NCBI GenBank assembly: GCA_003558085.1 | Contig: PWMT01000112.1 | Span: 1 to 13,860 of the forward strand | Direction of reading: 5' to 3' | DNA length: 13,860 nucleotides | DNA from: Methanobacteriaceae archaeon | Lineage (GTDB): Archaea; Methanobacteriota; Methanobacteria; Methanobacteriales; Methanobacteriaceae | Shown: piece by piece, positions 1 through 13,860 of the stretch | How positions within the stretch are numbered: position 1 is the first letter of the stretch | Layout: the number at the start of each line of letters is the position of its first letter | Notes under the pieces: generated by a model | What the model was told of the DNA's origin: nothing | The model's database searches: none | What the model saw: only the letters and a program-made list of their open reading frames with translations | Made by a program: the position numbers and the translations under genes

Positions 1-5
1 ACCAT
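1..5 (-). CDS. mvhA: Start (ATG GT.) of the next gene, expected to be the F420-non-reducing [NiFe] hydrogenase large subunit; runs off the window edge
   Basis: ATG at 5..3 overlaps the mvhG stop (TAATG coupling) and is preceded by GGAGGG (17..12). Identity is inferred only from the established mvhDGAB order; just 5 nt are visible. Confidence 0.6.
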
Positions 6-931
6 TATTTACCCTCCTTTCTCATTTTTACGGGTACTAAAGCCGCAGGGAGTGTGAATGTATAGAAGGTGCCTACGATATCATCTAATTGTTCAGCTAC
101 TTCTTCAGGATCTACAGTTTTATCTTCTTCTAAACCATAATCTGAAGCTATAGCACTGATCATTTTTGCTCCTTGATCTTGCACTTTAGGAGTGGGTCCG
201 TAGCAACCTCTGCACTGTATAGCTATAGTGGGACATTCAGCTCCACAAAGAGAGATGGTGGCAGGCCCCATACATATAAGTCCCTGGGGGATTAAACATA
301 ATTCTTCTTCTGGTTTGCCGATTTCAAATTGTCTTTTTATGAAATCCATAGCTAAACCTTCTGGTGGTTTTTCTCTGGGACATACTTCACAAAGGTTAGT
401 AGATGGTAATTCTACCGGTTCACCTTTAAGTAAAGCGAGTACTGCCTCCGCAACCACGTCAGATCGTGGCGGACAGCCTGGCACAGAAAAGTCCACATCA
501 ATTACTTCATTAAGTGGCCTAACTCTGCTTTCTAAATGAGGTATTTCCTCACTGGGTATGATACCTTCTTCGTTAGGGGTACTAGCTGAATTGATATATG
601 CTTCTTCTGCTAATTCTTCTGGAGTATATAAGTTTCCTAAACCAGGTATACCACCGTAAACAGCACAAGTACCATAGTTAATAATGAACTTAGCTTTTTC
701 TCTTATTTTCTCAGCCATTTCCCGGTTTTCTTCGTTTCGAATACCGCCTTCAATAATAACTAAATCCATCTCTGGTATTTCATCGTATTTGGTATCCATT
801 AATACTGGGCTGAATTCGAATTCTGCCAGTTCCAAAACATCCAGTAAAGCTTCGTGAAAGTCAGCGATGGAAAGGTGACATCCAGCACATCCACTTAGCC
901 ACATGGTTCCTATTTTTGCTTTTTCAGCCAT
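5..931 (-). CDS. mvhG: F420-non-reducing (methyl viologen-reducing) [NiFe] hydrogenase small subunit
   Basis: 308 aa with small-subunit Fe-S motifs WLSGCAGCH, YGTCAVYGG, PGCPP, CEVC, CLIPQGLICMGP and CRGCYGP. GGAGG SD upstream; follows mvhD. Confidence 0.96.
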   Translation of the reverse strand: MAEKAKIGTMWLSGCAGCHLSIADFHEALLDVLELAEFEFSPVLMDTKYDEIPEMDLVIIEGGIRNEENREMAEKIREKAKFIINYGTCAVYGGIPGLGNLYTPEELAEEAYINSASTPNEEGIIPSEEIPHLESRVRPLNEVIDVDFSVPGCPPRSDVVAEAVLALLKGEPVELPSTNLCEVCPREKPPEGLAMDFIKRQFEIGKPEEELCLIPQGLICMGPATISLCGAECPTIAIQCRGCYGPTPKVQDQGAKMISAIASDYGLEEDKTVDPEEVAEQLDDIVGTFYTFTLPAALVPVKMRKEGK

Positions 932-945
932 TTTTTTTCCTCCGC

Positions 946-1374
946 TTAAGCTTCAACATTAATTTGTTCCTTTAAAGGAGATGCGCCTAAGGATTTTATT
1001 CTATCCACCATCATTGTTACGGTATCAGCGAATTTTTCTCCTTCTGAAGCAGAAATCCAGTCATGGTAGACTCTATTTCTACCAATACCCATATCTTCTA
1101 CTAATTTATAAATAAGTCTCATTCTTCTATCTAGTTTGTAATTTCCTGCATCATAGTGACAGTCACCGTGGTGGCAACCAGCTACAATTACTCCATCTGC
1201 TCCTTCACGGAAAGCCTTCAACACAAATTGTGGTTCGATCCTTCCGGAACACATTACGCGTATTACCCGTACATTAGGAGGGTATTGCATCCTTGCGGTA
1301 CCTGCTGTATCAGCACCACCATAGGAGCACCAGTTGCAACAAAACATTACAATTTTTATGTCATCCTCAGCCAT
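946..1374 (-). CDS. mvhD: Hydrogenase [2Fe-2S] subunit delta, the adaptor to HdrA
   Basis: 142 aa with [29 protein letters not shown] and WISASEG. All ligands are Cys (no in-frame TGA/Sec). SD AGGAGG at 1387..1382. Confidence 0.97.
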
Positions 1375-1396
1375 TGAGTTTCCTCCTTGCTATTAA

Positions 1397-1444
1397 AAAT
1401 GTACATCAATTAGTACTATGAAATGTACCATTAATTGTACTTAT
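1397..1444. promoter_or_regulatory. Operator-like array: four GTAC at 12-bp spacing (two 24-bp tandem units; two interleaved 28-bp dyads)
   Basis: GTAC at 1401, 1413, 1425 and 1437. Units are AAATGTACATCAATTAGTACTATG (1397-1420) and AAATGTACCATTAATTGTACTTAT (1421-1444). Perfect dyad GTACAT-N16-ATGTAC at 1401-1428. The pattern is directly visible; the regulatory role is inferred. Confidence 0.7.
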
Positions 1445-1465
1445 TATAAGGATTTAAGAGAAGTA

Positions 1466-1481
1466 AGTATAAAGGTTACTT
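1466..1481 (-). promoter_or_regulatory. Candidate TATA box for the mvh operon
   Basis: Minus strand reads AAGTAACC-TTTATA-CT (TTTATA = 1473..1468). This would put the TSS near 1445, just upstream of the GTAC array. AT-rich context limits confidence. Confidence 0.4.
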
Positions 1482-1493
1482 ATGAAAATAAGT

Positions 1494-1508
1494 CGAAAAT
1501 TTTATATA
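1494..1508 (+). promoter_or_regulatory. Candidate BRE + TATA box facing sufC
   Basis: CGAAAAT-TTTATATA matches the archaeal BRE/TATA consensus well. A second candidate, AAAC-TTAATATA, lies at about 1633-1644. Confidence 0.45.
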
Positions 1509-1677
1509 TTAGATTAATGATTGGGGTTTTTGTAATAAAAATTCAAGTGACCTTTCAAAATTAATTTTTATGATACTGTTGATATAATGTTAATCTATAA
1601 ATCGATAATGGAATTTGAATTAATTATTTATTAAACTTAATATATACTTAATAGTTAATTACTATAACAAAAACAAG

Positions 1678-2448
1678 GTGGTGGTTAAACTGCTACTTGA
1701 AATAAACGATTTAGCAGTAGAAGTTAGTGGTAGGCAAGTTCTTGAACATATAGATTTGTATATAGATCAGGGAGAAACTCATGTTTTATTAGGGCCTAAC
1801 GGATCAGGCAAAAGTACTCTTTTTATGGCCATACTAGGATTTCCTAAATATAAGGTCACTAATGGAGAAATTATATTTAAAGGTGAAGATATCACTGATC
1901 TCACTACCACAGAAAGAGTCAGGAAGGGTATTGGTGTTAGTTTTCAAAATCCTCCTTCAGTAAGAGGAGTAAAGTTAATGGATTTATTAAAAGTGGAAAG
2001 CGGTCAGGACCCTAAAGATGAAAAACTTTCACCACAAATAAAGGAATTAGCCAATAAATTGAAATTTGATCAAAGATTCCTGGATAGAGACGTGAATTTA
2101 GGATTTTCTGGAGGAGAAGTAAAAAGGTCAGAAATATTGCAACTTTTAGCCCAAAAACCAGATTTCATCATGTTTGACGAACCAGATTCAGGAGTGGATA
2201 TTGAGAATGTAGAACTTCTAGCAGATCAAATAAATGTCCTACTGGATAAGGAAAAGAAGCTCGGCATGCGGAAAAAATCAGGGCTTATAATTACCCATCT
2301 AGGCTATATTCTTAATTTTGTAAATGCAGACACTGCCAATGTCTTATTAGATGGTAGAATAGCTTGTTCAGGTAATCCTGCAGAGATAATGGAAGATATA
2401 AGGGAAGAAGGATTTAAAGGGTGTGTGGAATGTTGCAAAGTCAATTAG
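1678..2448 (+). CDS. sufC: Fe-S cluster assembly ABC ATPase SufC (SmsC of the SUF-like minimal system); true start may be CTG at 1690
   Basis: Walker A GPNGSGKST, Q-loop FQNP, signature FSGGEVKR, Walker B IMFDEPDSG, H-loop ITH and a C-terminal C-X18-C-X2-C. Directly upstream of sufB. Confidence 0.94.
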   Translation: MVVKLLLEINDLAVEVSGRQVLEHIDLYIDQGETHVLLGPNGSGKSTLFMAILGFPKYKVTNGEIIFKGEDITDLTTTERVRKGIGVSFQNPPSVRGVKLMDLLKVESGQDPKDEKLSPQIKELANKLKFDQRFLDRDVNLGFSGGEVKRSEILQLLAQKPDFIMFDEPDSGVDIENVELLADQINVLLDKEKKLGMRKKSGLIITHLGYILNFVNADTANVLLDGRIACSGNPAEIMEDIREEGFKGCVECCKVN

Positions 2449-3665
2449 AAAAAGCTAAAAAGGCAAAGGAAAAAAAAGCCCTTTATGGTGAAGATATTGA
2501 CCTAGAAGAATTCATTAAAGAAGAAGCAGGTGAACATGAAACATTAACTGAAGGTAGTGAAATTCCTAAAAAAGTCCAAGAATCCTTACTTAAAGTGGGA
2601 GTAGATCCAGAAGAAAAAGAAAGAGCAGGTACTTTTATTCAAATGGATCAAAGTGGCATATACAGTACATCTATGGATGAATCAGTAGAAATAATGGGTA
2701 TGAATGTAGCTTTAGATAAATACAAATGGTTAAAAGATTACATGTGGAAAGCCGTGCCTGTTGATGCTGATAAATATACCGCGCAAACTGCTCTTCGCGA
2801 ATCAGAAATAGGAGAAAGCAGCGGATATTTCATAAGATCTCTTCCAGGTTCCAAGGAAGTTTTTCCTTTACAGGCCTGCATGTTCATTGGTGATGAAAAA
2901 ATAATGCAAACCGCACATAACATTATCATAGCTGAAGAAAATTCTGAATTGCACATCATTACTGGTTGTGCCACTGGAGAAGACGTAAGTTCTGCATTGC
3001 ATGTTGGAGTTTCAGAATTTTATCTAAAAAAAGGTGCTAAAATTACTTTTACCATGGTACATAACTGGGCAGAACAGGTGGATGTGCGACCCCGCACCGG
3101 TATTATGGTGGGAGATAATGCCACTTTCATGAATAATTACATTCTTACTAGCCCTGTAAAAAGTATACAGTCTTATCCCACGGCCTATTGCACAGGTAAA
3201 AATTCTAGAATCGGATTTCAATCTATATTAGGCGGTCAGAAAGAATCAATACTAGATATTGGAGGTAGAGTACTCTTAGAAGGAGAAGGCTCAAGTGCAG
3301 AAATAATCTCCAGAGCAGTTTCCAAAGATCAATCTCAACTCTATGCACGAGGCCATCTGGCAGGTAGAACTCAAAACGTCAAGGGACACTTAGAATGTCA
3401 CGGCCTAGTCTTATCAGATGATTCCATGATTTATGCAGTTCCAGAACTGGAAGGTAGTGCAACTGAACTAGAAATGTCTCATGAAGCTGCCGTAGGTAAA
3501 ATATCTGAAGAAGAAGTATTATATCTTACTTCTAGAGGACTTACCGAAGATGAAGCAGCTTCCATGATAGTAAAAGGATTTTTAAGTATGGATATAAAAG
3601 GTTTACCTCCTGAATTAGCAAAAGAAACTAAAAAAATGTTAGATATGAGTTTAGAGGGCATTTAA
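2430..3665 (+). CDS. sufB: SufB/SufD-family Fe-S scaffold protein (SmsB)
   Basis: 411 aa from ATG 2430 (SD-like GGGTG at 2419-2423). Contains HNIIIAEENS, IITGC, GHLECHGL and PELE...SHEAAVGKI...YLTSRGLTEDEA typical of SufB/D. Confidence 0.94.
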   Translation: MLQSQLEKAKKAKEKKALYGEDIDLEEFIKEEAGEHETLTEGSEIPKKVQESLLKVGVDPEEKERAGTFIQMDQSGIYSTSMDESVEIMGMNVALDKYKWLKDYMWKAVPVDADKYTAQTALRESEIGESSGYFIRSLPGSKEVFPLQACMFIGDEKIMQTAHNIIIAEENSELHIITGCATGEDVSSALHVGVSEFYLKKGAKITFTMVHNWAEQVDVRPRTGIMVGDNATFMNNYILTSPVKSIQSYPTAYCTGKNSRIGFQSILGGQKESILDIGGRVLLEGEGSSAEIISRAVSKDQSQLYARGHLAGRTQNVKGHLECHGLVLSDDSMIYAVPELEGSATELEMSHEAAVGKISEEEVLYLTSRGLTEDEAASMIVKGFLSMDIKGLPPELAKETKKMLDMSLEGI

Positions 3666-3669
3666 ACCA

Positions 3670-3690
3670 TATTTTTTAATTTTTTTATTT
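3670..3690 (+). terminator. Oligo-T terminator of sufCB
   Basis: TATTTTTTAATTTTTTTATTT begins 4 nt after the sufB stop; typical archaeal U-tract. Confidence 0.6.
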
Positions 3691-3903
3691 CAAAAGCAAT
3701 TTGTATCTATAACTTAATTTTTCTAGAAAAATTTGATTTGTATTTAGACAACATCTTATAATCTATATAGGATTAATTATTTTTCATAAAGAGTCTAGAA
3801 TATTAATGATCCTATTTAAAATAAAAAAAGATTATGGAATCTTAGAAATACTAAAAAGAACAAATTATAAATATGTTCTAAATTTAATAAGTGAAAAAAA
3901 TGA

Positions 3904-4173
3904 TTATTCAGAAATTATAATAAATTCGCCAACTTTTTCCACTTTCCCGAAAGGAACTAGTAGATAATCTTCTTTTTTCTTAGCTCCTTTAACATTAACA
4001 TTACGTCCTTTTTCAGTTTTAATAACCACATCAGTTATTTTTCCAGTTTTATCATTGATAATCAATTCTTCCAGTTCGCCTAAAATCCTAGCATTACTGG
4101 TAGCTACCTGATATCCCTTAATTTCACTCCAAAATTTTTCTTCCCCTTTAATGAGTTTCCTCTCTTCAAGCAT
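3904..4173 (-). CDS. Stand-alone PRC-barrel domain protein (CdpB-like candidate)
   Basis: 89 aa with the PRC pattern SEIKGYQV-x4-RILG-x-LEELIIN-x-KTGKI...VPFGKVEKVGEFIII. SD GGTGA overlaps the cobY stop; T7 tract after the stop (3900..3894). Confidence 0.88.
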   Translation of the reverse strand: MLEERKLIKGEEKFWSEIKGYQVATSNARILGELEELIINDKTGKITDVVIKTEKGRNVNVKGAKKKEDYLLVPFGKVEKVGEFIIISE

Positions 4174-4177
4174 TTTA

Positions 4178-4765
4178 TCACCAAAACTTTTCTAAGATTT
4201 TTAGATCATGATCCGTATTAATATTTAAGGCAAGTTCAATTTTAGGAACTAAAAAAACTTCCTCATCTTGTATCTTATTTAAACTCCTTAATATATTTAC
4301 TCCTGAGGGTACTATTCCCTCAATTACCAGGGATGGTTTCAGATTATATTCTTGGAATAGTTCTACAGGCACCGCCACACACATGGCAGGCAAAGGAGAT
4401 GCTTGGTACTGCTTGATAATTTCATCAATTATTTCTGCCTTAACTAATGGAAGATCGGAACTAATGATGAATAAAACTTGGCAAGGATCTTTAGCTTCAA
4501 AATAAGAAAGTATGAATTTTAAATCTTCTAAATAACCCTTACCGGGGGTTTTTATGATTTCCATTCCCCTCTTTTGTATATGATCCTGGGTAAGGGGAGT
4601 ATGCGGACTGGTGGCCACTACTATTTTTTCAATTTTGGAGGAGTTCTTCAGATTATGAATAACCCAGTCTATCATGGCCATACCCTTTAATTTTAGTAAG
4701 GGTTTCTCCGCAACCAGGTCCATTCTGGTTCCTTTACCACCAGCCATAATCAGTGCAGTAGGCAT
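4178..4765 (-). CDS. cobY: GTP:adenosylcobinamide-phosphate guanylyltransferase (NTP transferase family)
   Basis: 195 aa with ALIMAGGKGTRM-x4-EKPLL, TPGKGYLEDL, SSDLPL, VPSGVNIL and LNINT; matches the archaeal CobY pattern. Confidence 0.85.
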   Translation of the reverse strand: MPTALIMAGGKGTRMDLVAEKPLLKLKGMAMIDWVIHNLKNSSKIEKIVVATSPHTPLTQDHIQKRGMEIIKTPGKGYLEDLKFILSYFEAKDPCQVLFIISSDLPLVKAEIIDEIIKQYQASPLPAMCVAVPVELFQEYNLKPSLVIEGIVPSGVNILRSLNKIQDEEVFLVPKIELALNINTDHDLKILEKFW

Positions 4766-4837
4766 GAAAATTCCATGTTAATATTTTTTTAAAAAATTTA
4801 CTACAAAGTAACTAATTTTTAATCTTCAGTTAAATAG

Positions 4838-4858
4838 TTTAATAAAAGATTTATTAAA
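4838..4858 (-). terminator. AT-only hairpin directly after the marker-14 stop (possible terminator or processing site)
   Basis: TTTAATAAA-AGA-TTTATTAAA is a perfect 9-bp stem 2 nt after the TAG. It is thermodynamically weak and has no clear U-tract. Confidence 0.3.
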
Positions 4859-4860
4859 GC

Positions 4861-6342
4861 CTAATCTATCCATTTATCCTCTTTTCGTTTTTGTATTTTT
4901 CTTCTAGCCCCTAAGATACAGGGCCCGCCTTGTCTTCCACCAATAGGTATTTGGGGAGTTCCGATGGAATTCATACATCGGGCCATGATAGCTGCACCCA
5001 TGGCCAGTGCATCAGATACAAATAGACAATCCTTAAAACGATCCTGGGTATAATCCAATATTAATTCTGGTTTACGTCCAGTGATTCCCGCTCTTCCTGT
5101 AACTCCCAATACAGAGCCTTCTTCCACAACATCTTCATCGAATGCTTCATCAATCAATCTTTTAACTATTAAAGCACTTACATGATCTAAAGTTGCAAAC
5201 AAAGTATTAATACCGTCTTTTTTATAAATTTCATGGCCGATTCTGGTCATATCTTCTAATTTATCCCCATTTTTTCCTATATCGCAACCAATTAAAGTAG
5301 TTCCTGCATCATAAGCTGCTATTGGATCTACCGGAACAGTACCAAACCTAGTTCTATTTTCAGGGACTTTTCTAATATCGATTAAATTATGGGCTCTTTC
5401 TGCATTTTTTAAAGCTTTCTTCCAGTTGGCTTTTTTTAAAATATCTTTATTATATAGATCTAAAGCTGCGCCTCCTCTTTTATCTACCATTTCTGTGCCT
5501 CTTATTAGAGCATCAGGTGCGGCCCCAGCCAAACCACAAAAATTACCCACAGTACGAGCATAAGGTTCCTGATTATTTACTATTCTACCCGCCAAGGTGG
5601 TTCCAAAATCTAAGGATACGCAAGGATTTCTAAAATCAATATCAGTCCATTTAGCTCCTAATTTTATTCCAGCAGTAACCAATTCTCCTTCCATTTCATT
5701 AGCCACAACTTGTCTTCCAGTGGGGGGAATAACACTAACCACTGCTCCATCAAAAACCACTTTTTCCAGTAGGGAAAAGGGCTTCAACCTATCTGGAATA
5801 TTTTCAATGGAAAGAGCCGGGGCCATTTTACGGGGGGGTATGCCCGCCTCCAGGCATCCGTCTGCCAGTGCTATAATTAATTTTCCAACATCATCGGGAG
5901 ATCCAAAACCAGCAGTAACACCCGTAGATCTTACCACAAAATCAAGATCTTCATTAATATCGATTCTAGCTTTTTTGACTGATTCTAGAATAGTATTTTT
6001 TACCAAATCAGATACTGATTCTTTAGTTAATTCCACACCCCAAATAGTACTCCCAAAGATTTTTTCACCTTTAGCTGGTGGTCTAATATCCCGGGTCATT
6101 TTCACGGTCTTATCCAAAAGGTAGCTGCGAGAGGTATTCAAATTGGTAGCAGTGAGTATACATTTAGTGGTGGTGTTACCTAGTTCCACGGAGGCCACAA
6201 TGTAAAATATATCTGGCCTCATTGAATAACCTGATCCTACTGTTTTTTGAGTGAACGGAGCAGTTTTAATCTTTTCAATGGTAATATATCTACTTTTTGC
6301 AATTACTGGTTTTTTGCCAAACAACTTTTTGAGAAAGGACAA
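4861..6342 (-). CDS. Methanogenesis marker protein 14 (DUF2114), predicted ASKHA-fold ATPase
   Basis: 493 aa, TTG start with GGGGGT SD. Recognised from YIVASVELGNTTTKCIL, DLDFVVRSTGV, VANEMEGELVTAG, DFGTTLAG and MARCMNSIGTP, and from its position downstream of mtr. Confidence 0.85.
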   Translation of the reverse strand: MSFLKKLFGKKPVIAKSRYITIEKIKTAPFTQKTVGSGYSMRPDIFYIVASVELGNTTTKCILTATNLNTSRSYLLDKTVKMTRDIRPPAKGEKIFGSTIWGVELTKESVSDLVKNTILESVKKARIDINEDLDFVVRSTGVTAGFGSPDDVGKLIIALADGCLEAGIPPRKMAPALSIENIPDRLKPFSLLEKVVFDGAVVSVIPPTGRQVVANEMEGELVTAGIKLGAKWTDIDFRNPCVSLDFGTTLAGRIVNNQEPYARTVGNFCGLAGAAPDALIRGTEMVDKRGGAALDLYNKDILKKANWKKALKNAERAHNLIDIRKVPENRTRFGTVPVDPIAAYDAGTTLIGCDIGKNGDKLEDMTRIGHEIYKKDGINTLFATLDHVSALIVKRLIDEAFDEDVVEEGSVLGVTGRAGITGRKPELILDYTQDRFKDCLFVSDALAMGAAIMARCMNSIGTPQIPIGGRQGGPCILGARRKIQKRKEDKWID

Positions 6343-6514
6343 TTAATTACCCCCTATTATATTTAAGCATAATCTATCATGGAGAATATAAATCTTTATA
6401 AAAAAATCTGTAAGATTAGATTATTATGCTAAAAATTATATCTTGAATTTATAAAAAATCTAAATCATAAGATAAGTTTTTGTAAGAGTTCTTGTAAAAG
6501 TTTATATTCTTTTT

Positions 6515-6946
6515 TTATACCGTACGTACCAAGAGAACGGTGCAGGGAGCAGAATGTATCACCTTTTCAGATACACTGCCCAATAAATGTTTATCTACAA
6601 GGCCTTTACCAGTACCCATCACAATAACATCCACTTCTTCTTTCTCTGCAATTTTAACAATTTCATCAGCAGGATCTCCTTTAACCAATATTGGACGAAA
6701 TTTTACATCAGAATCTGTAGCTGCTTTTATTCCTTTCTCCATATCAGCCAGTATCTCCTTGCCTTTAGAAGTTAATTCTTTTATCATCATTTCCTTTACT
6801 TTCTTGGGAGTTAGAAAAGGTACTTTTGTTTCAACCACATAAAGACAGATTACTTCTGCTTCACGACCTCGAAAAAGGTCTACGGTATGTGCAATTATTT
6901 CGTCCATATATTCTCCCATAGTAGTGACTAATATTTTCTCATACAT
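6515..6946 (-). CDS. Universal stress protein (UspA family)
   Basis: MYEKILV start and [22 protein letters not shown]...[23 protein letters not shown] 6946 has GTGA 5 nt upstream; ATG 6952 (TGATG overlap) and GTG 6955 are alternative starts. Confidence 0.93.
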
Positions 6947-6951
6947 TTCCA

Positions 6952-7902
6952 TCACTTTAGTAGATATATTCTAAGTAAAGCATAAATTAGATAAGTGCTG
7001 ATTAAAATTATCCCACTTACCCTATTTAATTTAATGCCTTCCCTTTTAATGAGTATAAGTAGTAATAAATTTACCAAAATCATTACCTGTGCATCGAAAA
7101 TTAAGGAAAATGTTTCCACAGTAATATTTATAAATAATGCAGGTATTCCAATTCCCATTAGAATATTAAAGATGTAACTACCTAGTACGGTTCCTATGGA
7201 TAATTCATGTAAACCTTTTATGCGGAGGTAATAGTAACCATCATCTCTGGTATACTGGTACCTATAGACAAAATAAAAAGTCCCATAATCATTTCTGATA
7301 TTCCAGCTAATTGTGCTAACTCTGTTCCGGTGAACACTAAAATTCTACAACCTATTATTAAGCCTATAATCCCCAATATAACTAATAGTAACTCTTTTAT
7401 GGTGATTTCTTTCTTTTTAAAATTTTTCTTTTTATTTCCATCTGAATATTGTTTTTGGGCTTTAATTAAAAGCCATAGATAAAATAGATAAACCAAGATC
7501 AGTACGGAGGCCATTCTGGTTATATGGCCCCATGCCATGAAAAATATTAAAATTAATCCAGTTGCCAGGGTTATAATGCCATCTCTTACAATATTCCTAG
7601 CATCGGCTGTAATACTTCCAGCAAATATAGCACACAATCCTAATATTCCTGCTAAGTTCCAATATTTGAGCCAAAAACCGTTCCCACACCAATTCTGTGC
7701 TTCCTGTTAATGAAGCAATTAGTGCCGAGCCGAACTCATGTAGCGATGTACCTATAGCAGCTGCAGTAACTTCTTAAATATTCTTTGAAATCCCTAGAGA
7801 TAATCCACTATCCATAATGTTATCTACAAATATATCTGAAGATTTTATTATTATAATTAAGGAAAAACCCAATGCTGTAATCAATATTATTATTTCTAAC
7901 AA
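6952..7902 (-). pseudogene. Disrupted calcium/sodium antiporter (CaCA family), paralog of 8039..8992
   Basis: Manual reconstruction: TTG start at 7902 (SD GCGGTG), MLEIIILITALGFSLIIIIKSSDIFVDN..., in-frame TAA at 7776..7774, and three 1-nt deletions (about 7693, 7662, 7220) joining ORFs 7218..7637 and 6952..7158. Retains GTSL(H)EF, GTVFGSNIWN, GTSIPE and GTVLGSYIFN. Confidence 0.92.
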
Positions 7903-7931
7903 ATAAAACACCGCTAAAATTATCTCTAGAT

Positions 7932-7947
7932 ATTATAAACTTTTTTT
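7932..7947 (-). promoter_or_regulatory. Candidate BRE + TATA for the pseudogene-usp transcript
   Basis: Minus strand reads AAAAAAAG-TTTATAAT, about 30 nt upstream of the TTG at 7902. Confidence 0.5.
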
Positions 7948-8038
7948 AAAGTTGATAGTAATAGCTTAATTAATTTCTTTAATAAGTTAGTTCTTTAATT
8001 GCAAAATTTTTATAATGACTCTTTAGGCCATGATTTAA

Positions 8039-8992
8039 TTAAAATGGTGTTAAAGTTCTAAAGAGTAGGTAAAGACCATAGAAGAAAATTAGAATGATCC
8101 CTTCTCTACGACTAAGCCTATATTTCATACGCATTAACACTAGAATGGTGATAATCATTAATATCATCACTGGTGTATCATAGAAAATAGCAATATTATC
8201 CACAGGTATAGTTACCAGTAAGGCCGGCACTCCTAAACCGATGAGAATATTGAATATGAAACTTCCTAGTACAGTTCCTATAGCCAGATTAGAGAGGCCT
8301 CTTTGAGCAGAAGTTAATACTGTGAAAAATTCTGGAGAAGTAGTACCAAAAGCCAATAATATACCGGCAAACATGGCAGGAATGCTGTAAATATCAGATA
8401 TTTCAACAGTACAGTACACCATAATCCGGCACCCAATGGCTAAACCAAATAATCCGATTAAGCCCCACCAAATATTTTTCCGTATGTTTCTAGTATTTTT
8501 ATCTTCTTCTTTAACAATTTTTAATTGATTTTCTTTTTTCTGGTCTTTTATCAAATAATAAATATAAACAAGATAAGCTAGTATGAGAATAGAACCTGTC
8601 AACAAATTAACATTGTTAAAAATAAGTAAAAAAATGAAGAGTATTAAGGAGGTGATTAAGGCCATTGAACCATCTCGCTTTAGAGAAGATTTTTTGGTGG
8701 AAATGATGCCAGATAAAATAGCAGATATTCCTAATATACCTCCAATGTTCCATATATTAGCCCCTAGGGCTAAGCCCACCCCTAAGTCTGGGCTGCCACT
8801 TAAAATGGAAATTATAGCAGAACCGAATTCAGGAAGAGAGGTCCCCATAGCTGCAGCAGTTACCCCTAAAACCACTTCTGAAATACCAAAAGAGGATCCT
8901 ATCTCAACCAGATTTTCCACAAAAATATCTGCAGCCTTAATGACTGCAAGAAGAGCTATAAGGAGTAAAATTATAAGAATTAATCCTAACAT
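8039..8992 (-). CDS. Calcium/sodium antiporter (CaCA superfamily, YrbG/NCX_Mj-like)
   Basis: 317 aa with about 10 hydrophobic segments in two repeats. Alpha-1 GTSLPEF...GANIWN and alpha-2 GTTSPEF...GSFIFN, separated by a charged central loop. Confidence 0.93.
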   Translation of the reverse strand: MLGLILIILLLIALLAVIKAADIFVENLVEIGSSFGISEVVLGVTAAAMGTSLPEFGSAIISILSGSPDLGVGLALGANIWNIGGILGISAILSGIISTKKSSLKRDGSMALITSLILFIFLLIFNNVNLLTGSILILAYLVYIYYLIKDQKKENQLKIVKEEDKNTRNIRKNIWWGLIGLFGLAIGCRIMVYCTVEISDIYSIPAMFAGILLAFGTTSPEFFTVLTSAQRGLSNLAIGTVLGSFIFNILIGLGVPALLVTIPVDNIAIFYDTPVMILMIITILVLMRMKYRLSRREGIILIFFYGLYLLFRTLTPF

Positions 8993-9025
8993 TATTTTTC
9001 ACAGAACAATCTTTCCCTTTACTAT

Positions 9026-9039
9026 GTATATAGTTTTTT
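9026..9039 (-). promoter_or_regulatory. Candidate BRE + TATA for the intact antiporter
   Basis: Minus strand reads AAAAAAC-TATATAC, about 35 nt upstream of ATG 8992. Confidence 0.4.
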
Positions 9040-9141
9040 AAAAATAAGAGTAGTACTAGGCATCCATACAAAATCATTTAGGATTAAAGAAATTATATTA
9101 TCAATTAAAAGTCTATGGGATAGTCTAAGAGAAATGTATTC

Positions 9142-9174
9142 AAAAAAAAAAAATAATTAGGCGCTAAACGCCTA
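9142..9174 (-). terminator. Hairpin + T12 terminator of the mtr operon
   Basis: After the mtrH TAA the minus strand reads TAGGCG-TTTAG-CGCCTA (9174..9158), then ATTA and 12 T (9153..9142). Confidence 0.85.
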
Positions 9175-9175
9175 T

Positions 9176-10108
9176 TTAAAGCAATTTGAAGAATGGGTGT
9201 TCTTCGATAGGTTCAGTGCCTATGTCACTGGCAGCTTCTGATATGAATATATCAGCCATACCGCAAGCAGGGAAAGCCATTTTAGAGTTTTCTATAGGAC
9301 CATACAGTACGAAATCACCGCCTACTGTTTGCTGGATTAAGTTGGATCCAACGTCACATACTGGCCAGGCTTCAGGATGATCTTTTTTGTATTCCCGTAG
9401 CCAATCCCAGGCAGACGGTACATTGTGAATACCACTTCCCACCGGGTAACCCCATTTACTCTTAACCGCAAATGATGTTCTACAGGGAGGCCCAGCTCCC
9501 TGACCTAGTGGGGTTATAGCAACATCCATGAATGGTTTAGTGATTCCACAATCTTCTGACATAGCCAGAAGACCTTTATCCAAAACGCTTCCACCACTTT
9601 CCCAGATATTAATTTTACCTTCAACACCAGGTTCCATAGGATTGAAACCTAATACAATGGAAGCTGAAATATCAGTCTCTCGAATTGCATCCAATTCAGT
9701 CTCTTCTGAGGCCATGTTAATGGAATTGTAAATGGCTCTGTCTGCTATTCCTGCGTCATGAGCATATTTTGAACCAGCGATTTTAGCCTCAGCTGAAGTT
9801 GAATCTATCATGAATGGTGCATCTGTTACTTCACCTACAAATTCCAAGTACTTCACAATAGCTTCAGGAGTTTGACCGAAAGTCTGAACGATACACGGGT
9901 TTCCAGTGACATCAGACATTTCTTCCATTTCTTTTATTAGTGCATCTGCCTTGTCTTTATCAAAGACACCTGCTTTTTCGTCTTCAATTATAGAGTGTCC
10001 TCCGTAAAATATAGTTCCAGCCAATACAGTTGGATATTCGCCAGGTTGGCCTCCAACCTGAACTCCGGCAACATCTATTACAACTTGTTCTTTATCAAAC
10101 CTAAACAT
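9176..10108 (-). CDS. mtrH: Tetrahydromethanopterin S-methyltransferase subunit H
   Basis: 310 aa with MFRFDKEQ, GGQPGEYPTVLAGTIFY, IDSTS, YNSIN, GSGIHNVPSAWDWL and GDFVLYGPIEN. Confidence 0.97.
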   Translation of the reverse strand: MFRFDKEQVVIDVAGVQVGGQPGEYPTVLAGTIFYGGHSIIEDEKAGVFDKDKADALIKEMEEMSDVTGNPCIVQTFGQTPEAIVKYLEFVGEVTDAPFMIDSTSAEAKIAGSKYAHDAGIADRAIYNSINMASEETELDAIRETDISASIVLGFNPMEPGVEGKINIWESGGSVLDKGLLAMSEDCGITKPFMDVAITPLGQGAGPPCRTSFAVKSKWGYPVGSGIHNVPSAWDWLREYKKDHPEAWPVCDVGSNLIQQTVGGDFVLYGPIENSKMAFPACGMADIFISEAASDIGTEPIEEHPFFKLL

Positions 10109-10129
10109 ACGTAAACCTCCAAATCCAAT

Positions 10130-10384
10130 CTATATGCCTAATAAGGACAGGAACGCCCCTATGGCTAAGACTCTGTACGTAATTAACAGGATAATTAATC
10201 CTATTATTAATCCATATAAAATACCTACATCTCTACCTACTTGTTGACCTAATCTTTGGTAGTATTCACCAGCAGTAAATTCTACCTTTTCTTCGATATC
10301 GTCCAATCTAGTATTGGCATTGTTAAAGTCGTCAGCAGAGACCAGTACACGGGGTATGGTAGTTTTCTCATTTTCATCAGACAT
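10130..10384 (-). CDS. mtrG: Mtr subunit G
   Basis: 84 aa with [33 protein letters not shown] and a C-terminal TM helix; operon position. Confidence 0.96.
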
Positions 10385-10389
10385 TCATA

Positions 10390-10593
10390 TCACCCCATCA
10401 ACAAAGCCCATAAAAGGGGCAGGCCCACTAGTATCAGTGCCAGTATAAAACCAATAGCCATACCACTTATACGGGTAACTATTAGACCAGCAAAGAGTCG
10501 ACCGTCACGACCAATCAATTGACTTCGATATTTCATATCTTCAACTACGTTTTTTATGCCGCGTAGGTTTGGTTTATTAGATAATATTATCAT
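10390..10593 (-). CDS. mtrF: Mtr subunit F
   Basis: 67 aa with SNKPN...VEDMKYRSQLIGRDGRLFAG and a TM helix; operon position. Confidence 0.95.
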   Translation of the reverse strand: MIILSNKPNLRGIKNVVEDMKYRSQLIGRDGRLFAGLIVTRISGMAIGFILALILVGLPLLWALLMG

Positions 10594-10607
10594 TTAGAAA
10601 CCTCCCA

Positions 10608-11327
10608 CTAGAATATAAAGAGTAGTACTCCCACAGTCAGCATAAAGGCCAGTCCTAACATTATACCTTGGACTTTACCAGAGTACATTCCAGCAAACAT
10701 CCGGTTAGCCGTACCGACCAATTTGACTTGGGTCTGAATATTTCGCATTCTAGCTTCGATAAGAGCGGTTTCAGGAGCAACAGGCCTTACTTCTTCGCCT
10801 TCCTCTTCGTCTCCTTCTTCTTCCACTTCTATTATCATAGCTTCTTCTTCAAATGCTCCAGGATCCTTTTCAATACACTCTTTTACCTTAGATTGTATAG
10901 TGCTTGCATCTTCCACATCTATCAAATTCACAATTTCCAACTGTTGCTGGAAACGTTCAATACCTTCATCAGGTACATTTTCAATATATGGAATGGCGCC
11001 AGTAGCACCTTCAATTTTTCGTTTGTCAGGATCTATACCATTTGCGTGAAGAGCTTCTACACTTTGGCCAACAATATGTCCTTGTACCTCTGATCCACAT
11101 AAGACGAGGAAGCGAATGTTTGGGTTGGATATGATATTAGCCATCATCTTTTCAATACCGAGGTTTTCGGTTTTGCATGGTCCGGCAATAGCAGCACCAG
11201 CATCTACAGGTACATCTTCATTGTGAGAAGCAAGAGTAGTAGCAGCTACTGGGCTTTCAGGATCCCCTACTATGTAGTCTCCATTAATTACCGGCCATCC
11301 TTCTGCAGGTGATTTTTTTTCAGCCAC
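10608..11327 (-). CDS. mtrA: Mtr subunit A (corrinoid protein)
   Basis: 239 aa, GTG start with [36 protein letters not shown] (cobalt-ligand His), GAIPYIEN, acidic linker and C-terminal anchor. Confidence 0.97.
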
Positions 11328-11339
11328 TTATAACACCTC

Positions 11340-11642
11340 CTAAAGCAGTAAAGCAATCAGCAAGATTAAACCCAGTATGAAACCATACACTATGTTGGTT
11401 AGTTTACCTGCAGTGAGGTATACTCCTTCCCTTCCAGGGAAAGCACCCTCAGAAGTGGTGGAAGGATCAAGTGAGTTAACAAGGTCATCTGCTGTAGCCT
11501 CTAAAGTATTTATTTCTGAGTTTATATCATCCATTGATAATATTAAGATCTCTCTGCCAAGAGCAGCACCGATCATACCAGTGGAGGGATCTAAAGTTAA
11601 ATTTGATTCAGGAACTACTTTAATTAAAGGTAACATTTCCAT
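11340..11642 (-). CDS. mtrB: Mtr subunit B
   Basis: 100 aa with [32 protein letters not shown] and a C-terminal TM helix. Confidence 0.96.
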
Positions 11643-11653
11643 TTTGATTCCTC

Positions 11654-12457
11654 CTATTCCTCCTCTTTAGGCCATAGCCCAGCCCATTTTACAGATGCTG
11701 CCTCATTATAGGAAGCTGTAAAGAAAGACCTTATAGATATAAACCATGATAAAGCACCAATTACTGCCACTACCCACCAGGCTTCAGAAACTCCTATGGC
11801 TAAAAGTCCAATTATAGCCATGGATAAAAATCCAGTGGATGCAGCTAATTTCAAGGTTCTTAACTGATTTTCATTTGGTCCTAAACAGGCGTTGAAAGGA
11901 TGTTGTATGGCCATGGTGTTCAAAATGAACAAAAGGGCAATATATCCTGTGGCAACTACTGAAGTCATGATGGCTTGCATGGAATAAGTTCCTGCAATGG
12001 CTGCAGAGAATCCAAGAACCGATAAAGCAGCCGCACCAGATATTTCAGCGGTACATCTCTCCAAGATAGGAATTTTCATATTAATTATTTTTTTACCTAC
12101 AAGGGCAACAATGGCCCCTAAAATCATGGCTAATATTAATCCTAATATAGGGCCAATTGGGAGGGCTGGTAATAAAAACGCGCCAGCTAATCCACCTATA
12201 GCACCTACAATACCTATTGCCAATGACATATATCCAATGGAAGGTACACCTGTACCTAGACCATAACTAGCTACTCTTCGGATCGCGTCAGCACCCCATA
12301 CTATAGCGCAAACTGCACCTACTGAAGCAATTAACGGCCCTAAAATCGGATTGAGGGGAGTGACATATATACCCACAAGCCCTCCTACAATTCCCAGAGC
12401 CATTAGTCTTCCCGGGGCTATGGCGGCGCCGGCGGGTCCACCCGCTGCAACTGACAT
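11654..12457 (-). CDS. mtrC: Mtr subunit C
   Basis: 267 aa from ATG 12457 (TAATG overlap with mtrD; SD GGAGGTG). Contains [21 protein letters not shown] and [14 protein letters not shown]. Confidence 0.96.
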
Positions 12458-13155
12458 TAGAAGACACCTCCATTTATTAAGAGTAATGATATTACTCCGA
12501 TTACCACCGAAGCAATTAAACAAGCAACTATTCCACTCCCAATTTTCTTAAATTTGGGATCGTGAAATCCTTCTATAGTACCTCCTATATTATAGGAAGC
12601 AATCACTGCGTTAATGAAAAATATGCCTACTGCAAATATACCGGCTAGACCAACAGCAGCTTCTGCAAATCCAGTGCCTTGTAATGCTTCAAATAAGCCC
12701 CAGTAGATTAATCCTCCACCAATTCCACCTAAGGCAGCACCAATTAAACCACTAATGAAACACACCGTAGGAAGACCATGCCCTTCAGTACCAGGTGAAA
12801 CATATTTTTCTTGATTTAACCTAGTTATAGGGTCTACTGTAACCTTAGCTGAAGCAGGTACACAACCTACACCATATACAAATATTAAGTTACCTACTAG
12901 CATGGTAATTCCAATCATTAGCATAGCACCCACTGCCCCGGCAGCCATAATCATTAAAGGCGACTGACCAGTCATGAGAGCAGCAGTGATTAAACCAGTT
13001 AAACCAGCACCGGCGGCTAACATAGCTGTACCGGTACCTACACCTGTAGCAGTTGCCATAGCTGCAGGAGCGCCCCCCACAGGTACGAAATGAACTCCGC
13101 CCCCTATGAGAACCCCACCGACAGTTATAGCTCCGATTAATGTTAATGGATCCAT
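12457..13155 (-). CDS. mtrD: Mtr subunit D
   Basis: 232 aa with [32 protein letters not shown] and [18 protein letters not shown]. Confidence 0.97.
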
Positions 13156-13166
13156 TTTATATCCTC

Positions 13167-13860
13167 CTATTCTTCCTTGTATGGTCCATAATTAGTTCTA
13201 GCGAACATTTCTACTCTACTATTGAGTATTATCAGTATTAGGACTATTATTAAACCTGCTATTAAGCCTCCAGTTAAACCGAACACAATGGTGATCCAGA
13301 AACTAAAGAAGACAATTGTCCCAAAGGCTAAACCAGTAAGCGGACCTCCGTATTTTGCACAGAAGTTTACTACATCCATGGAGTTCCTGGCTCCCATCTC
13401 AGCTTTAGTTACTATGTCACCGTGCACAGATACAGGGACTCCCGCACCAAAGGGATACTGTTGATATTGTCTTTCAGCTCCGTAATGAACGTCGCCTGTA
13501 GATGAACCTATCGCCCCAATAGTTATTCCCCATATCACAGCCAGAAGTGGGAGTGGGAATGGGTGAGCGGGTTGTAAGGCTGTAATCATCAGATAGGATA
13601 ATCCTACAATAGAAAAAGTAGTTATAAATCCATGCCCAGCAATCGGTCCTAATGATTGGACCAAAATATCTAGGTATAATGGTTGATTGAATTGGGATTG
13701 GCTAACAATCCGTCCCATGTGAGATGTTGCAGTATATATCGAGTGTACTAAAGCAGCTATTAAAGCCCCTATAGCTATAGCCATTATCACTGGTAAACCT
13801 AATGCAGATATCATTGCAAATGTTACAGAACCGTCTATACCACACCAAGCCCCGTAAGAT
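13167..13860 (-). CDS. mtrE: Mtr subunit E (Na+-translocating); 5' end lies outside the window
   Basis: The frame is open to the window edge (...[21 protein letters not shown]...). Contains the conserved [22 protein letters not shown] and [11 protein letters not shown]. Confidence 0.97.

Follow-up and report, generated by a model that had tools for sequence, protein, structure and literature searches.

What does the protein known as methanogenesis marker 14 do, and why does its gene stand between the genes of Mtr and a homolog of cobY? The question is raised by a contig of a Methanobacteriaceae archaeon (GCA_003558085.1, PWMT01000112.1), analysed here over positions 1 to 13,860 (the window) and drawn from a genome that is 95.9% complete. 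The comparative evidence assembled below shows that the link between marker 14 and Mtr is real and solid. Beyond this link, the protein is predicted to have the ATP-binding fold of the actin/Hsp70/sugar-kinase (ASKHA) superfamily, and ATP-driven re-activation of the cobamide carried by the corrinoid protein MtrA is tentatively proposed as its role.

In hydrogenotrophic methanogenesis, energy is conserved at the Mtr step alone, and the cob(I)amide of Mtr is easily oxidised. To our knowledge, no well-studied system of corrinoid methyl transfer can do without a means of repairing its cobalt after oxidation. In anaerobes, this means is an ASKHA ATPase, as exemplified by RamA and RACo. For Mtr, the available part of a 2025 structural paper refers to the enzyme that would re-activate the cobamide as "as-yet uncharacterised" (PMC12774963).

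Marker 14 has been catalogued under several names, including TIGR03285, DUF2114/PF09887, arCOG04866 and COG4065, with MMP1223 of M. maripaludis as an example (PMC4153887; PMC1852104, both in excerpt). The literature searched contained no functional study of the family under the names marker 14, DUF2114, TIGR03285, COG4065 or arCOG04866. According to the accessible sections of Borrel 2014, markers 10 and 14 (arCOG00950 and arCOG04866) are missing from three Methanomassiliicoccales that lack Mtr, and marker 14 lies near mtr in four orders, from which it was concluded that the protein is probably involved in Mtr function (PMC4153887). A preliminary description of the window, made from the sequence alone, had presented the gene as part of an undescribed Mtr maturation module; an Mtr role had thus already been inferred in 2014. 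The family and its tie to Mtr are therefore already known, and what is new here is a clean example from a methanogen together with supporting counts. Possibly the same family is meant by the marker m26 of Adam et al. 2022, in whose available text it is described as "tied to Mtr" and as surviving in two groups, the Thorarchaeia and those Bathyarchaeia that have Mtr (PMC9635834).

Family, motifs and predicted fold of marker 14

Positions 4178-6342 of the window hold two co-oriented minus-strand genes, an open reading frame (ORF) of 493 amino acids (aa) at 4861-6342 and one of 195 aa at 4178-4765. The longer one encodes a full-length member of the marker 14 family, which scores 742.9 bits with TIGR03285 (cut-off 274; profile positions 1-446 of 446) and 732.6 bits with Pfam DUF2114 (PF09887; cut-off 25; positions 2-449 of 449). 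The sequence GGGGGT is found 6 nt 5' of the start codon of this ORF, and the genome encodes Mtr, with mtrEDCBAGH in the same window. Nothing sets the protein apart from its Methanobacteriaceae orthologs, which are 63-86% identical to it and typically carry the same N-terminal extension of about 45 residues outside the Pfam model. No fused longer form of marker 14 was found among 8000 scored candidates, which constitutes weak evidence.

Conservation was counted in a 96-member alignment comprising the window protein, 16 cluster representatives and 79 metagenome loci (Table 1). The five ASKHA motifs named in the preliminary description occur in the right order, with key residues conserved in 95-96 of the 96 members, and all seven peptides that it quoted were recovered at the same coordinates. 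Judged from the alignment, these conserved motifs are not a matter of chance. The two cysteines near the C-terminus, to which a possible metal-binding function had been ascribed, proved to be conserved in 96/96 and 95/96 members. They belong to a tail with the pattern ARC-x9-P-x-GG-x5-C, of which residues 461-480 are modelled with a predicted local distance difference test score (pLDDT) of 88-91.

The AlphaFold2 (AF2) model, built on a 30-sequence alignment, has a mean pLDDT of 92.3 and a predicted template-modelling score (pTM) of 0.92, and it predicts a two-domain actin/Hsp70/sugar-kinase fold. Together with Foldseek and the 96-member alignment, it bears out the expectation of an ASKHA fold with intact nucleotide-binding motifs. 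In a Foldseek search of the PDB, 393 matches reached E<=0.001. Of the matches listed, those that can be recognised are ASKHA proteins, namely TsaD/Kae1, glycerol kinase, glucokinase, the kinase-like MK0840 of M. kandleri, RACo and FtsA. Among these listed matches, 8iey_A (TsaD/Kae1) has an E-value of 3e-7 and 4bgb_A one of 9.3e-7, while the corrinoid activator RACo (4c1n_I) appears at rank 29 with an E-value of 7.4e-6 and FtsA at rank 42. For the top matches, template-modelling scores (TM-scores) on the query are about 0.33-0.38, at a sequence identity of 9-15%. By sequence, phmmer gave no PDB match at E<=10, and a profile search of the PDB gave two chance matches only (E 0.73 and 1.3). The modest TM-scores, combined with the absence of any PDB chain matched by sequence, indicate that marker 14 is a distinct ASKHA family with no close solved relative. 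The expectation of a specific closeness to DdrA, EutA or RACo fared less well than that of the fold itself, since nothing beyond the shared superfamily was recovered by Foldseek, Pfam or hhalign.

A divergent DUF2114-like subfamily of about 383-409 aa was also noticed (P0185, P0187, P0188, P0189, P0191, P0200, P0201, P0205, P0210 and P0218), one member of which comes from a candidate division MSBL1 archaeon and is annotated as hypothetical. Its members are 19-24% identical to the window protein and score 102-141 bits with TIGR03285, below the cut-off of 274 (7/10 scanned). In these sequences phosphate-1 is degenerate, and neither the insertion found at about residues 166-215 of marker 14 nor its cysteine-containing C-terminal tail is present; the subfamily is possibly a non-catalytic paralogue.

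Genomic linkage of marker 14 to Mtr

Outside the class Methanobacteria, the association was examined by a metagenome scan seeded with non-Methanobacteria members, which yielded 80 loci in which ORFs were called and neighbours were clustered. A full marker 14 gene is present in 79 of them. By a neighbour rule, 14 of these loci were classed as Methanobacteria-type and 65 as others, the latter including three short loci that group with the Methanobacteria-type clade in the marker 14 tree. An mtr gene occurs in 21 of the 79 fetched loci and in 10 of the 65. In six of the 65, mtrH lies immediately upstream of marker 14 in the same orientation, with a spacing that ranges from a 38 bp overlap to an 18 bp gap and suggests an operon. 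These six loci fall into two separate clades of the marker 14 tree, and mtrH adjacency overall is found in at least three.

The arrangement of the remaining mtr genes differs among these loci. In L153, L167, L170 and L181, the mtrH-marker 14 pair faces other mtr genes on the opposite strand, which in L181 extend from mtrG to mtrE by way of mtrA, C and D. Locus L193 has the order MTHFR (metF), MtrH', an MtrA without its membrane anchor, MtrH, marker 14 and the F420 ligase CofE, as assigned by Pfam and alignment, and the same mtrH'-mtrA-mtrH-marker 14 order was recognised by BLAST in L165. No Mtr membrane subunit was detected in the fetched L193 and L165 loci, which connects marker 14 with the chemistry of MtrA and MtrH and not with the sodium pump or methyl-CoM reductase. 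The Mtr link proposed from the window alone is thus supported by synteny in several lineages.

Within the class, marker 14 was surveyed in a genome sample that was taken for the phylum and consists of Methanobacteria only (201 genomes); it was found in 189 of them, several of the 12 misses having sequence missing. Of 80 Methanobacteriaceae loci, 47 have at least 5 kb of upstream flank, and a co-oriented mtrH is present 5' of marker 14 in 46 of these, at distances of 110-4460 bp (under 400 bp in 11/46). The same mtr-marker 14-cobY order was seen in 5/5 genomes from three other families of the class, in one of which mtrH is about 70 bp away. Because genes for a universal stress protein (usp) and a Na+/Ca2+ exchanger are present in only some loci, they can be regarded as optional inserts into an ancestral mtrH-marker 14-cobY-PRC arrangement. 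Two loci with the mtr-marker 14-cobY order typical of Methanobacteriaceae, L073 (CAVDAS010000029.1) and L006 (JBNGDB010000003.1), with 63% and 76% identity to the window protein, come from records titled "Bacteroidaceae bacterium" and "Methanomicrobiales archaeon", respectively, probably as a result of binning or labelling errors.

The gene downstream of marker 14 had been read as cobY, and its product matches the M. jannaschii CobY structures 2mzb and 3rsb (E 3e-32 and 3e-31, residues 4-193) and passes TIGR00454 (189.2 bits; cut-off 174.7); the equivalog model NF045495 gave 158.7 bits, below its cut-off of 250. The proposed pairing of the two genes stands for Methanobacteria and fails elsewhere. 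Downstream flank of 6 kb or more is available for 53 Methanobacteriaceae loci, and in 51 of these a co-oriented cobY follows marker 14 (exceptions L063 and L068). The pairing occurs in 12 of the 79 metagenome loci, all of them Methanobacteria-type. Even there the pairing is loose, with gaps of 10-5087 bp in the Methanobacteriaceae loci (median 133) and with inserted genes, among them an ArsR gene with an unknown gene in six loci. Locus MTH1152 of M. thermautotrophicus, which we take to be the first characterised CobY, presumably lies a few genes from mtr (MTH1156-1163) and would fit the synteny of the window. As evidence for a cofactor-loading role, the adjacency of cobY is weak.

In the window itself (Table 1), marker 14 lies between mtr and cobY in the co-oriented order first described, at the place behind mtr that Borrel 2014 gave for Methanobacteriales (PMC4153887); it does not adjoin mtrH, as usp and exchanger genes intervene. 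The AT-rich spacer on the usp side may carry a promoter of its own for marker 14, to judge from its composition, and the spacer of 95 bp between marker 14 and cobY is likewise AT-rich with oligo-T runs. On the opposite strand lie sufCB, followed by vhuD and vhuG. The exchanger fragments at 7084-7830 correspond to three parts of the intact exchanger at 8039-8992 (residues 24-70, 30-62 and 231-275), a 139-aa ORF at 7218-7637 being one of the pieces; they are probably a decayed duplicate, and related loci contain an intact "exchanger-usp-exchanger-usp" duplication. In the 223-bp gap between mtrA and mtrG (10385-10607, minus strand), where mtrF is expected, there is no ORF of at least 80 aa, a shorter mtrF not having been searched for. 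The C-terminal part of MtrA (10608-10780, residues 184-230) has a weak match to MtrF (PF09472, E 0.0034).

Table 1. Features of the window, with conservation given as counts in the 96-member marker 14 alignment
Feature	Position	Strand	Evidence, conservation or remark
Methanogenesis marker 14 gene, 493 aa, TTG start, predicted ASKHA fold	4861..6342	-	PF09887, TIGR03285, AF2, Foldseek
Phosphate-1 VASVELGNTTTK, residues 49-60	6163..6198	-	E53 95/96, G55 96/96, N56 96/96, K60 95/96
Cys163 codon, cysteine at end of helix 149-165	5854..5856	-	94/96
Connect-1-like VVANEMEG, residues 212-219	5686..5709	-	N215 96/96, E216 92/96, M217 95/96, E218 95/96
Phosphate-2 SLDFGTTLAG, residues 243-252	5587..5616	-	D245 95/96, G247 96/96, T248 95/96, T249 94/96, G252 96/96
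Cys353 codon, LIGCD strand	5284..5286	-	89/96
Adenosine motif VLGVTGRAG, residues 411-419	5086..5112	-	G413, G416, R417 each 96/96
Connect-2 helix DALAMGAAIMA, residues 444-454	4981..5013	-	D444 95/96, G449 96/96; helix 445-457 in model
C-terminal tail, Cys456 (ARCMNS) to Cys475 (GGPCI)	4918..4977	-	C456 96/96, C475 95/96, P466 92/96, G469 94/96
ARCMNS peptide	4966..4983	-	quoted peptide, recovered
GPCIL peptide	4912..4926	-	quoted peptide, recovered
mtr operon: mtrE (truncated at the end of the window), D, C, B, A, G, H	9176..13859	-	Pfam, ORFs
MtrA	10608-11327	-	PF04208 E 2.4e-85
MtrH	9176-10108	-	PF02007 E 1.7e-145
Na+/Ca2+ exchanger, intact	8039-8992	-	optional insert between mtrH and marker 14
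Remnants of second Na+/Ca2+ exchanger	7084-7830	-	pieces in two reading frames
Universal stress protein (usp)	6515..6955	-	PF00582 E 2.3e-29; in some Methanobacteria loci, not others
172-bp AT-rich spacer between usp and marker 14	6343..6514	-	sequence; oligo-T runs, TATA-like boxes
cobY homolog (adenosylcobinamide-phosphate guanylyltransferase family)	4178..4765	-	TIGR00454, PDB matches
PRC-barrel protein, 4 bp after cobY	3904..4173	-	PF05239 E 1.7e-10; marker 14-cobY-PRC order kept in Methanobacteria

Further neighbours were recorded in the metagenome loci. In one clade of the marker 14 tree, a Cys-rich protein is encoded directly 3' of marker 14, with spacing from a 4 bp overlap to a 37 bp gap (L176:11361-12095, plus strand; also L147, L150, L160, L161, L163, L169, L175, L178, L180, L188, L189 and L194). 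Its length is 226-244 aa, with a piece of 137 aa in one truncated locus; it contains five cysteines that are invariant (FPPC, CPxC, C, PDExC) and belongs to no Pfam family. No homolog was found in the window's genome, and its AF2 model (pLDDT 79.7) gave no Foldseek match at E<=0.001. A PriL-type Fe-S (iron-sulfur) domain was considered (Atlas score 0.83) and set aside, as the NCBIfam matches are weak (E 1e-5 to 1e-2) and score far below the cut-offs. In the lineage concerned, marker 14 may have this protein as a partner that provides a metal or Fe-S site. In another clade, a DUF1890-DUF1894 pair is co-oriented 3' of marker 14 (L154:1745-2233 and L184:11470-11811, both plus strand, and similar loci); the homologs MTH0777 (1kjn) and MTH0776 (1z9v) have solved structures and no known function. 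Full-length marker 14 homologs also occur under NCBI names of lineages not known as methanogens (P0130, P0133 and P0140), which read "Candidatus Hodarchaeaceae archaeon", "Candidatus Undinarchaeales archaeon" (also "Methanopyri archaeon") and "DPANN group archaeon". Either the genes are true remnants or the bins carry the wrong label.

Possible roles at the corrinoid centre of Mtr

Considering that anaerobes repair oxidised corrinoids with ASKHA ATPases and that a conserved ASKHA protein is coupled to mtrH and mtrA, the simplest reading of marker 14 is an Mtr-specific activase. On this proposal, it would be a soluble ASKHA protein that binds and probably hydrolyses ATP and that assists MtrA and MtrH, the corrinoid part of Mtr, as an accessory factor bound only transiently, serving neither the membrane pump nor methyl-CoM reductase. 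It would use ATP to re-activate the MtrA cobamide after oxidation to the inactive Co(II) or Co(III) state, as a functional analogue of RamA and RACo recruited from a different ASKHA family. The four near-invariant cysteines C163, C353, C456 and C475 might bind a metal or Fe-S centre, or a separate carrier might bring the electrons; the conserved Cys456-Cys475 tail fits the idea of a metal site and may provide the ligands. That marker 14 hydrolyses ATP, touches MtrA, transfers electrons and binds a metal is inferred. A predicted complex with MtrA (residues 1-172) scored 0.27, with the mark at 0.32, in a comparison without controls. Overall, an ATP-driven reductive or redox activation of the MtrA cobamide by marker 14 is offered as a tentative conclusion.

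The proposal would plausibly fill a recognised gap. The RACE domain PF14574, which is found in the known activators, has no match in the window's genome. Among 61 Methanobacteria genomes of at least 95% completeness, it was detected in 21 and not in 40 (0/9 in genus g28 and 0/1 in g29), and among 14 control genomes it was detected in M. acetivorans only and not in M. jannaschii, which has marker 14. In these organisms, the ATP-dependent activase of Mtr, if one is needed, is thus not a RACE protein, and marker 14 is the best genomic candidate. One of the RACE matches (G003:C14:25368-26081, plus strand) lies within a 590-aa open frame with one in-frame TAG; the gene could have decayed, the sequence could be in error, or the codon could be read through.

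In its fullest form, the proposal would make marker 14 the missing ATP-dependent reductive activase of MtrA and a second, non-RACE class, with a cysteine-ligated metal or Fe-S site of its own and no ferredoxin domain, universal in Mtr-bearing archaea and kept with soluble MtrA and MtrH after the loss of methanogenesis. As a whole, this extended version is somewhat doubtful. An activase role as such, if confirmed, would mean that one of the last "methanogenesis markers" without a function had received one and that corrinoid activases include a new class. It would also account for the retention of marker 14 with soluble MtrA and MtrH in non-methanogens, and it would present a specific target for blocking the formation of methane.

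Several observations weigh against an activase. The entry of electrons is its weak point: no Fe-S, flavin or ferredoxin domain was recognised in 30/30 marker 14 members, Pfam giving only DUF2114 at E<=10, and the electron path is thus unexplained. In phosphate-1, Glu53 replaces the Asp of most ASKHA proteins, with Lys60 present, and the structural similarity of the model is generic, as TsaD/Kae1 and sugar kinases rank above RACo. In terms of gene order, the Methanobacteria loci count as a single observation because the genomes are kin, and the AT-rich spacers of 172 and 95 bp around the window gene give no indication of co-transcription with mtr or cobY. The fetched flanks contain no mtr gene in 58 of the 79 metagenome loci (55 of the 65 not Methanobacteria-type), and other neighbours unrelated to Mtr recur, including DUF1890 (9 loci), DUF1894 (8), a convergent DUF2098 with MptA (10), thioredoxin (6), Trm1 and the Cys-rich protein of 237-244 aa (13). 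Absence from Methanomassiliicoccales is confounded as evidence, since these organisms, which depend on corrinoid methyltransferases, are not known to have methanopterin chemistry either. Moreover, MMP1223 is far in locus number from MtrA (MMP1564) in M. maripaludis, as listed in the available part of one survey (PMC1852104). Finally, marker 14 is unmentioned in the accessible text on the refined cryo-EM model of Mtr(ABCDEFG)3 from M. marburgensis, which has 27 chains (PMC10998594); it is therefore not a stable subunit.

A first alternative is a chaperone for cobamide loading or exchange, in which ATP would open apo or damaged MtrA so that the cobamide could be inserted or swapped in the manner of EutA and DdrA, with cobY supplying the cofactor. 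The ASKHA fold with its intact nucleotide motifs and the Mtr synteny would serve this role as well as an activase, the co-oriented cobY of Methanobacteria (51/53 and 5/5, as above) would suit it, and EutA is the nearest family by language-model features (0.83, a lead only) and has the GxTTT signature of phosphate-1 in common with marker 14. However, the EutA profile aligns with phosphate-1 only, Pfam EutA has no match, and cobY adjacency is confined to Methanobacteria-type loci with gaps of up to 5 kb. Moreover, the known damage to methyl-transfer corrinoid proteins is oxidation, which is repaired by reduction and not by exchange. The loading chaperone is judged unlikely.

Equally unlikely is another Mtr-specific role away from the cobalt centre, such as assembly or docking of MtrH and MtrA, regulation of methyl transfer, or a nucleotide-dependent scaffold. 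The tightest coupling of marker 14 is to mtrH and not to mtrA (the six loci described above), MtrH is a loosely attached subunit of Mtr, and another small Mtr-binding regulator, MtrR, reportedly exists. MtrH is also missing from the Mtr(ABCDEFG)3 chains in the available part of the cryo-EM report (PMC10998594), and the small Mtr-binding regulator MtrI has been described (PMC12774963, in excerpt). Against these points, marker 14 persists in the L193 cluster, where no membrane subunit is detectable and no membrane complex would need assembly, and the strict conservation of all catalytic-type ASKHA residues points more to chemistry, or to work powered by ATP, than to a scaffold that is passive.

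Marker 14 might also be a small-molecule kinase in the biosynthesis of cobamide, methanopterin or F420 that merely lies near the users of these cofactors. Glycerol kinase, glucokinase and the putative sugar kinase MK0840 are among the top Foldseek matches, and cofactor genes adjoin marker 14 in three lineages, namely cobY in Methanobacteria, cofE in L193 and convergent MptA (GTP cyclohydrolase) in 10 loci. Yet translational coupling is to mtrH, and the distribution of the family disagrees with such a role. Archaeoglobus fulgidus makes methanopterin, F420 and corrinoids and is not known to have Mtr, and Methanomassiliicoccales, as noted, use corrinoid methyltransferases. In the accessible part of the table of Gao and Gupta 2007, MMP1223/COG4065 is among the last entries that precede the heading under which proteins found also in A. 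fulgidus are grouped, which argues against a general role in cofactor biosynthesis (PMC1852104), and the available sections of Borrel 2014 report the family as absent from Methanomassiliicoccales (PMC4153887). A cofactor kinase therefore seems quite improbable.

A function unrelated to Mtr, for example with methyl-CoM reductase or in cytoskeleton-like filaments, with the synteny a historical accident, would agree with the 55 of 65 loci that have no mtr nearby, with the definition of the family as nothing more than a "methanogenesis marker" and with FtsA among the Foldseek matches, but it is very unlikely given that mtrH adjacency recurs in at least three clades, that marker 14 stands beside MtrA and MtrH in a cluster with no mcr gene in the fetched locus, and that it is absent, in the available text, from Mcr-containing Methanomassiliicoccales (PMC4153887). 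Only a slight chance is left to readings not named here.

Comparison with known ASKHA systems

The activase proposal invites comparison first with the RACE activators (RamA and RACo; PDB 4c1n), which have an ASKHA ATPase core, as is predicted for marker 14, and which act on corrinoid methyl-transfer proteins, the class of target proposed here. The differences are that marker 14 has no match to PF14574 (RACo_C_ter) and no ferredoxin-type Fe-S domain, and that its phyletic spread is wider (189/201 Methanobacteria genomes compared with 21/61 for RACE). Profile comparison with hhalign was performed between the 96-sequence marker 14 alignment and alignments of EutA (11 sequences), Methanobacteria RACE homologs (12) and Kae1-Bud32 (16). 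No meaningful alignment with the RACE homologs was obtained, and all marker 14 comparisons remained below 5% probability; control pairs of known ASKHA families did likewise, so these alignments are too shallow to rank ASKHA subfamilies.

EutA and DdrA are ASKHA-type proteins that service B12 enzymes, E. coli eutA being annotated as a reactivase. Their partner is a radical adenosylcobalamin enzyme, whereas that of marker 14 would be a methyl-transfer corrinoid protein. EutA clusters were the nearest non-DUF2114 clusters by language-model features; the resulting identity lead (Atlas 0.83) was not corroborated, hhalign aligning phosphate-1 only (E 0.06-0.09, probability <1%). Pfam EutA (PF06277) matched neither the marker 14 members scanned nor anything else in the window's genome, and DdrA is not among the Foldseek matches listed. 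No adenosylcobalamin-dependent lyase or dehydratase lies beside marker 14, its neighbours being Mtr, Usp, the Na+/Ca2+ exchanger, CobY and the PRC-barrel protein.

With Kae1/TsaD and the sugar and glycerol kinases, marker 14 appears to share the two-domain ASKHA topology, to which it adds an insertion (about residues 166-215) and a C-terminal tail with cysteines. One further group is relevant to the question of electrons. The Pfam family BcrAD_BadFG gave a weak match (E 0.051) to 1 of 30 marker 14 members. In ASKHA activases of the HgdC and BcrAD-BadFG type, ATP drives low-potential electron transfer through a cysteine-ligated [4Fe-4S] cluster. The predicted ASKHA core of marker 14, together with its conserved cysteines, is compatible with ATP-driven electron delivery of the HgdC type, which would operate without a separate ferredoxin domain.

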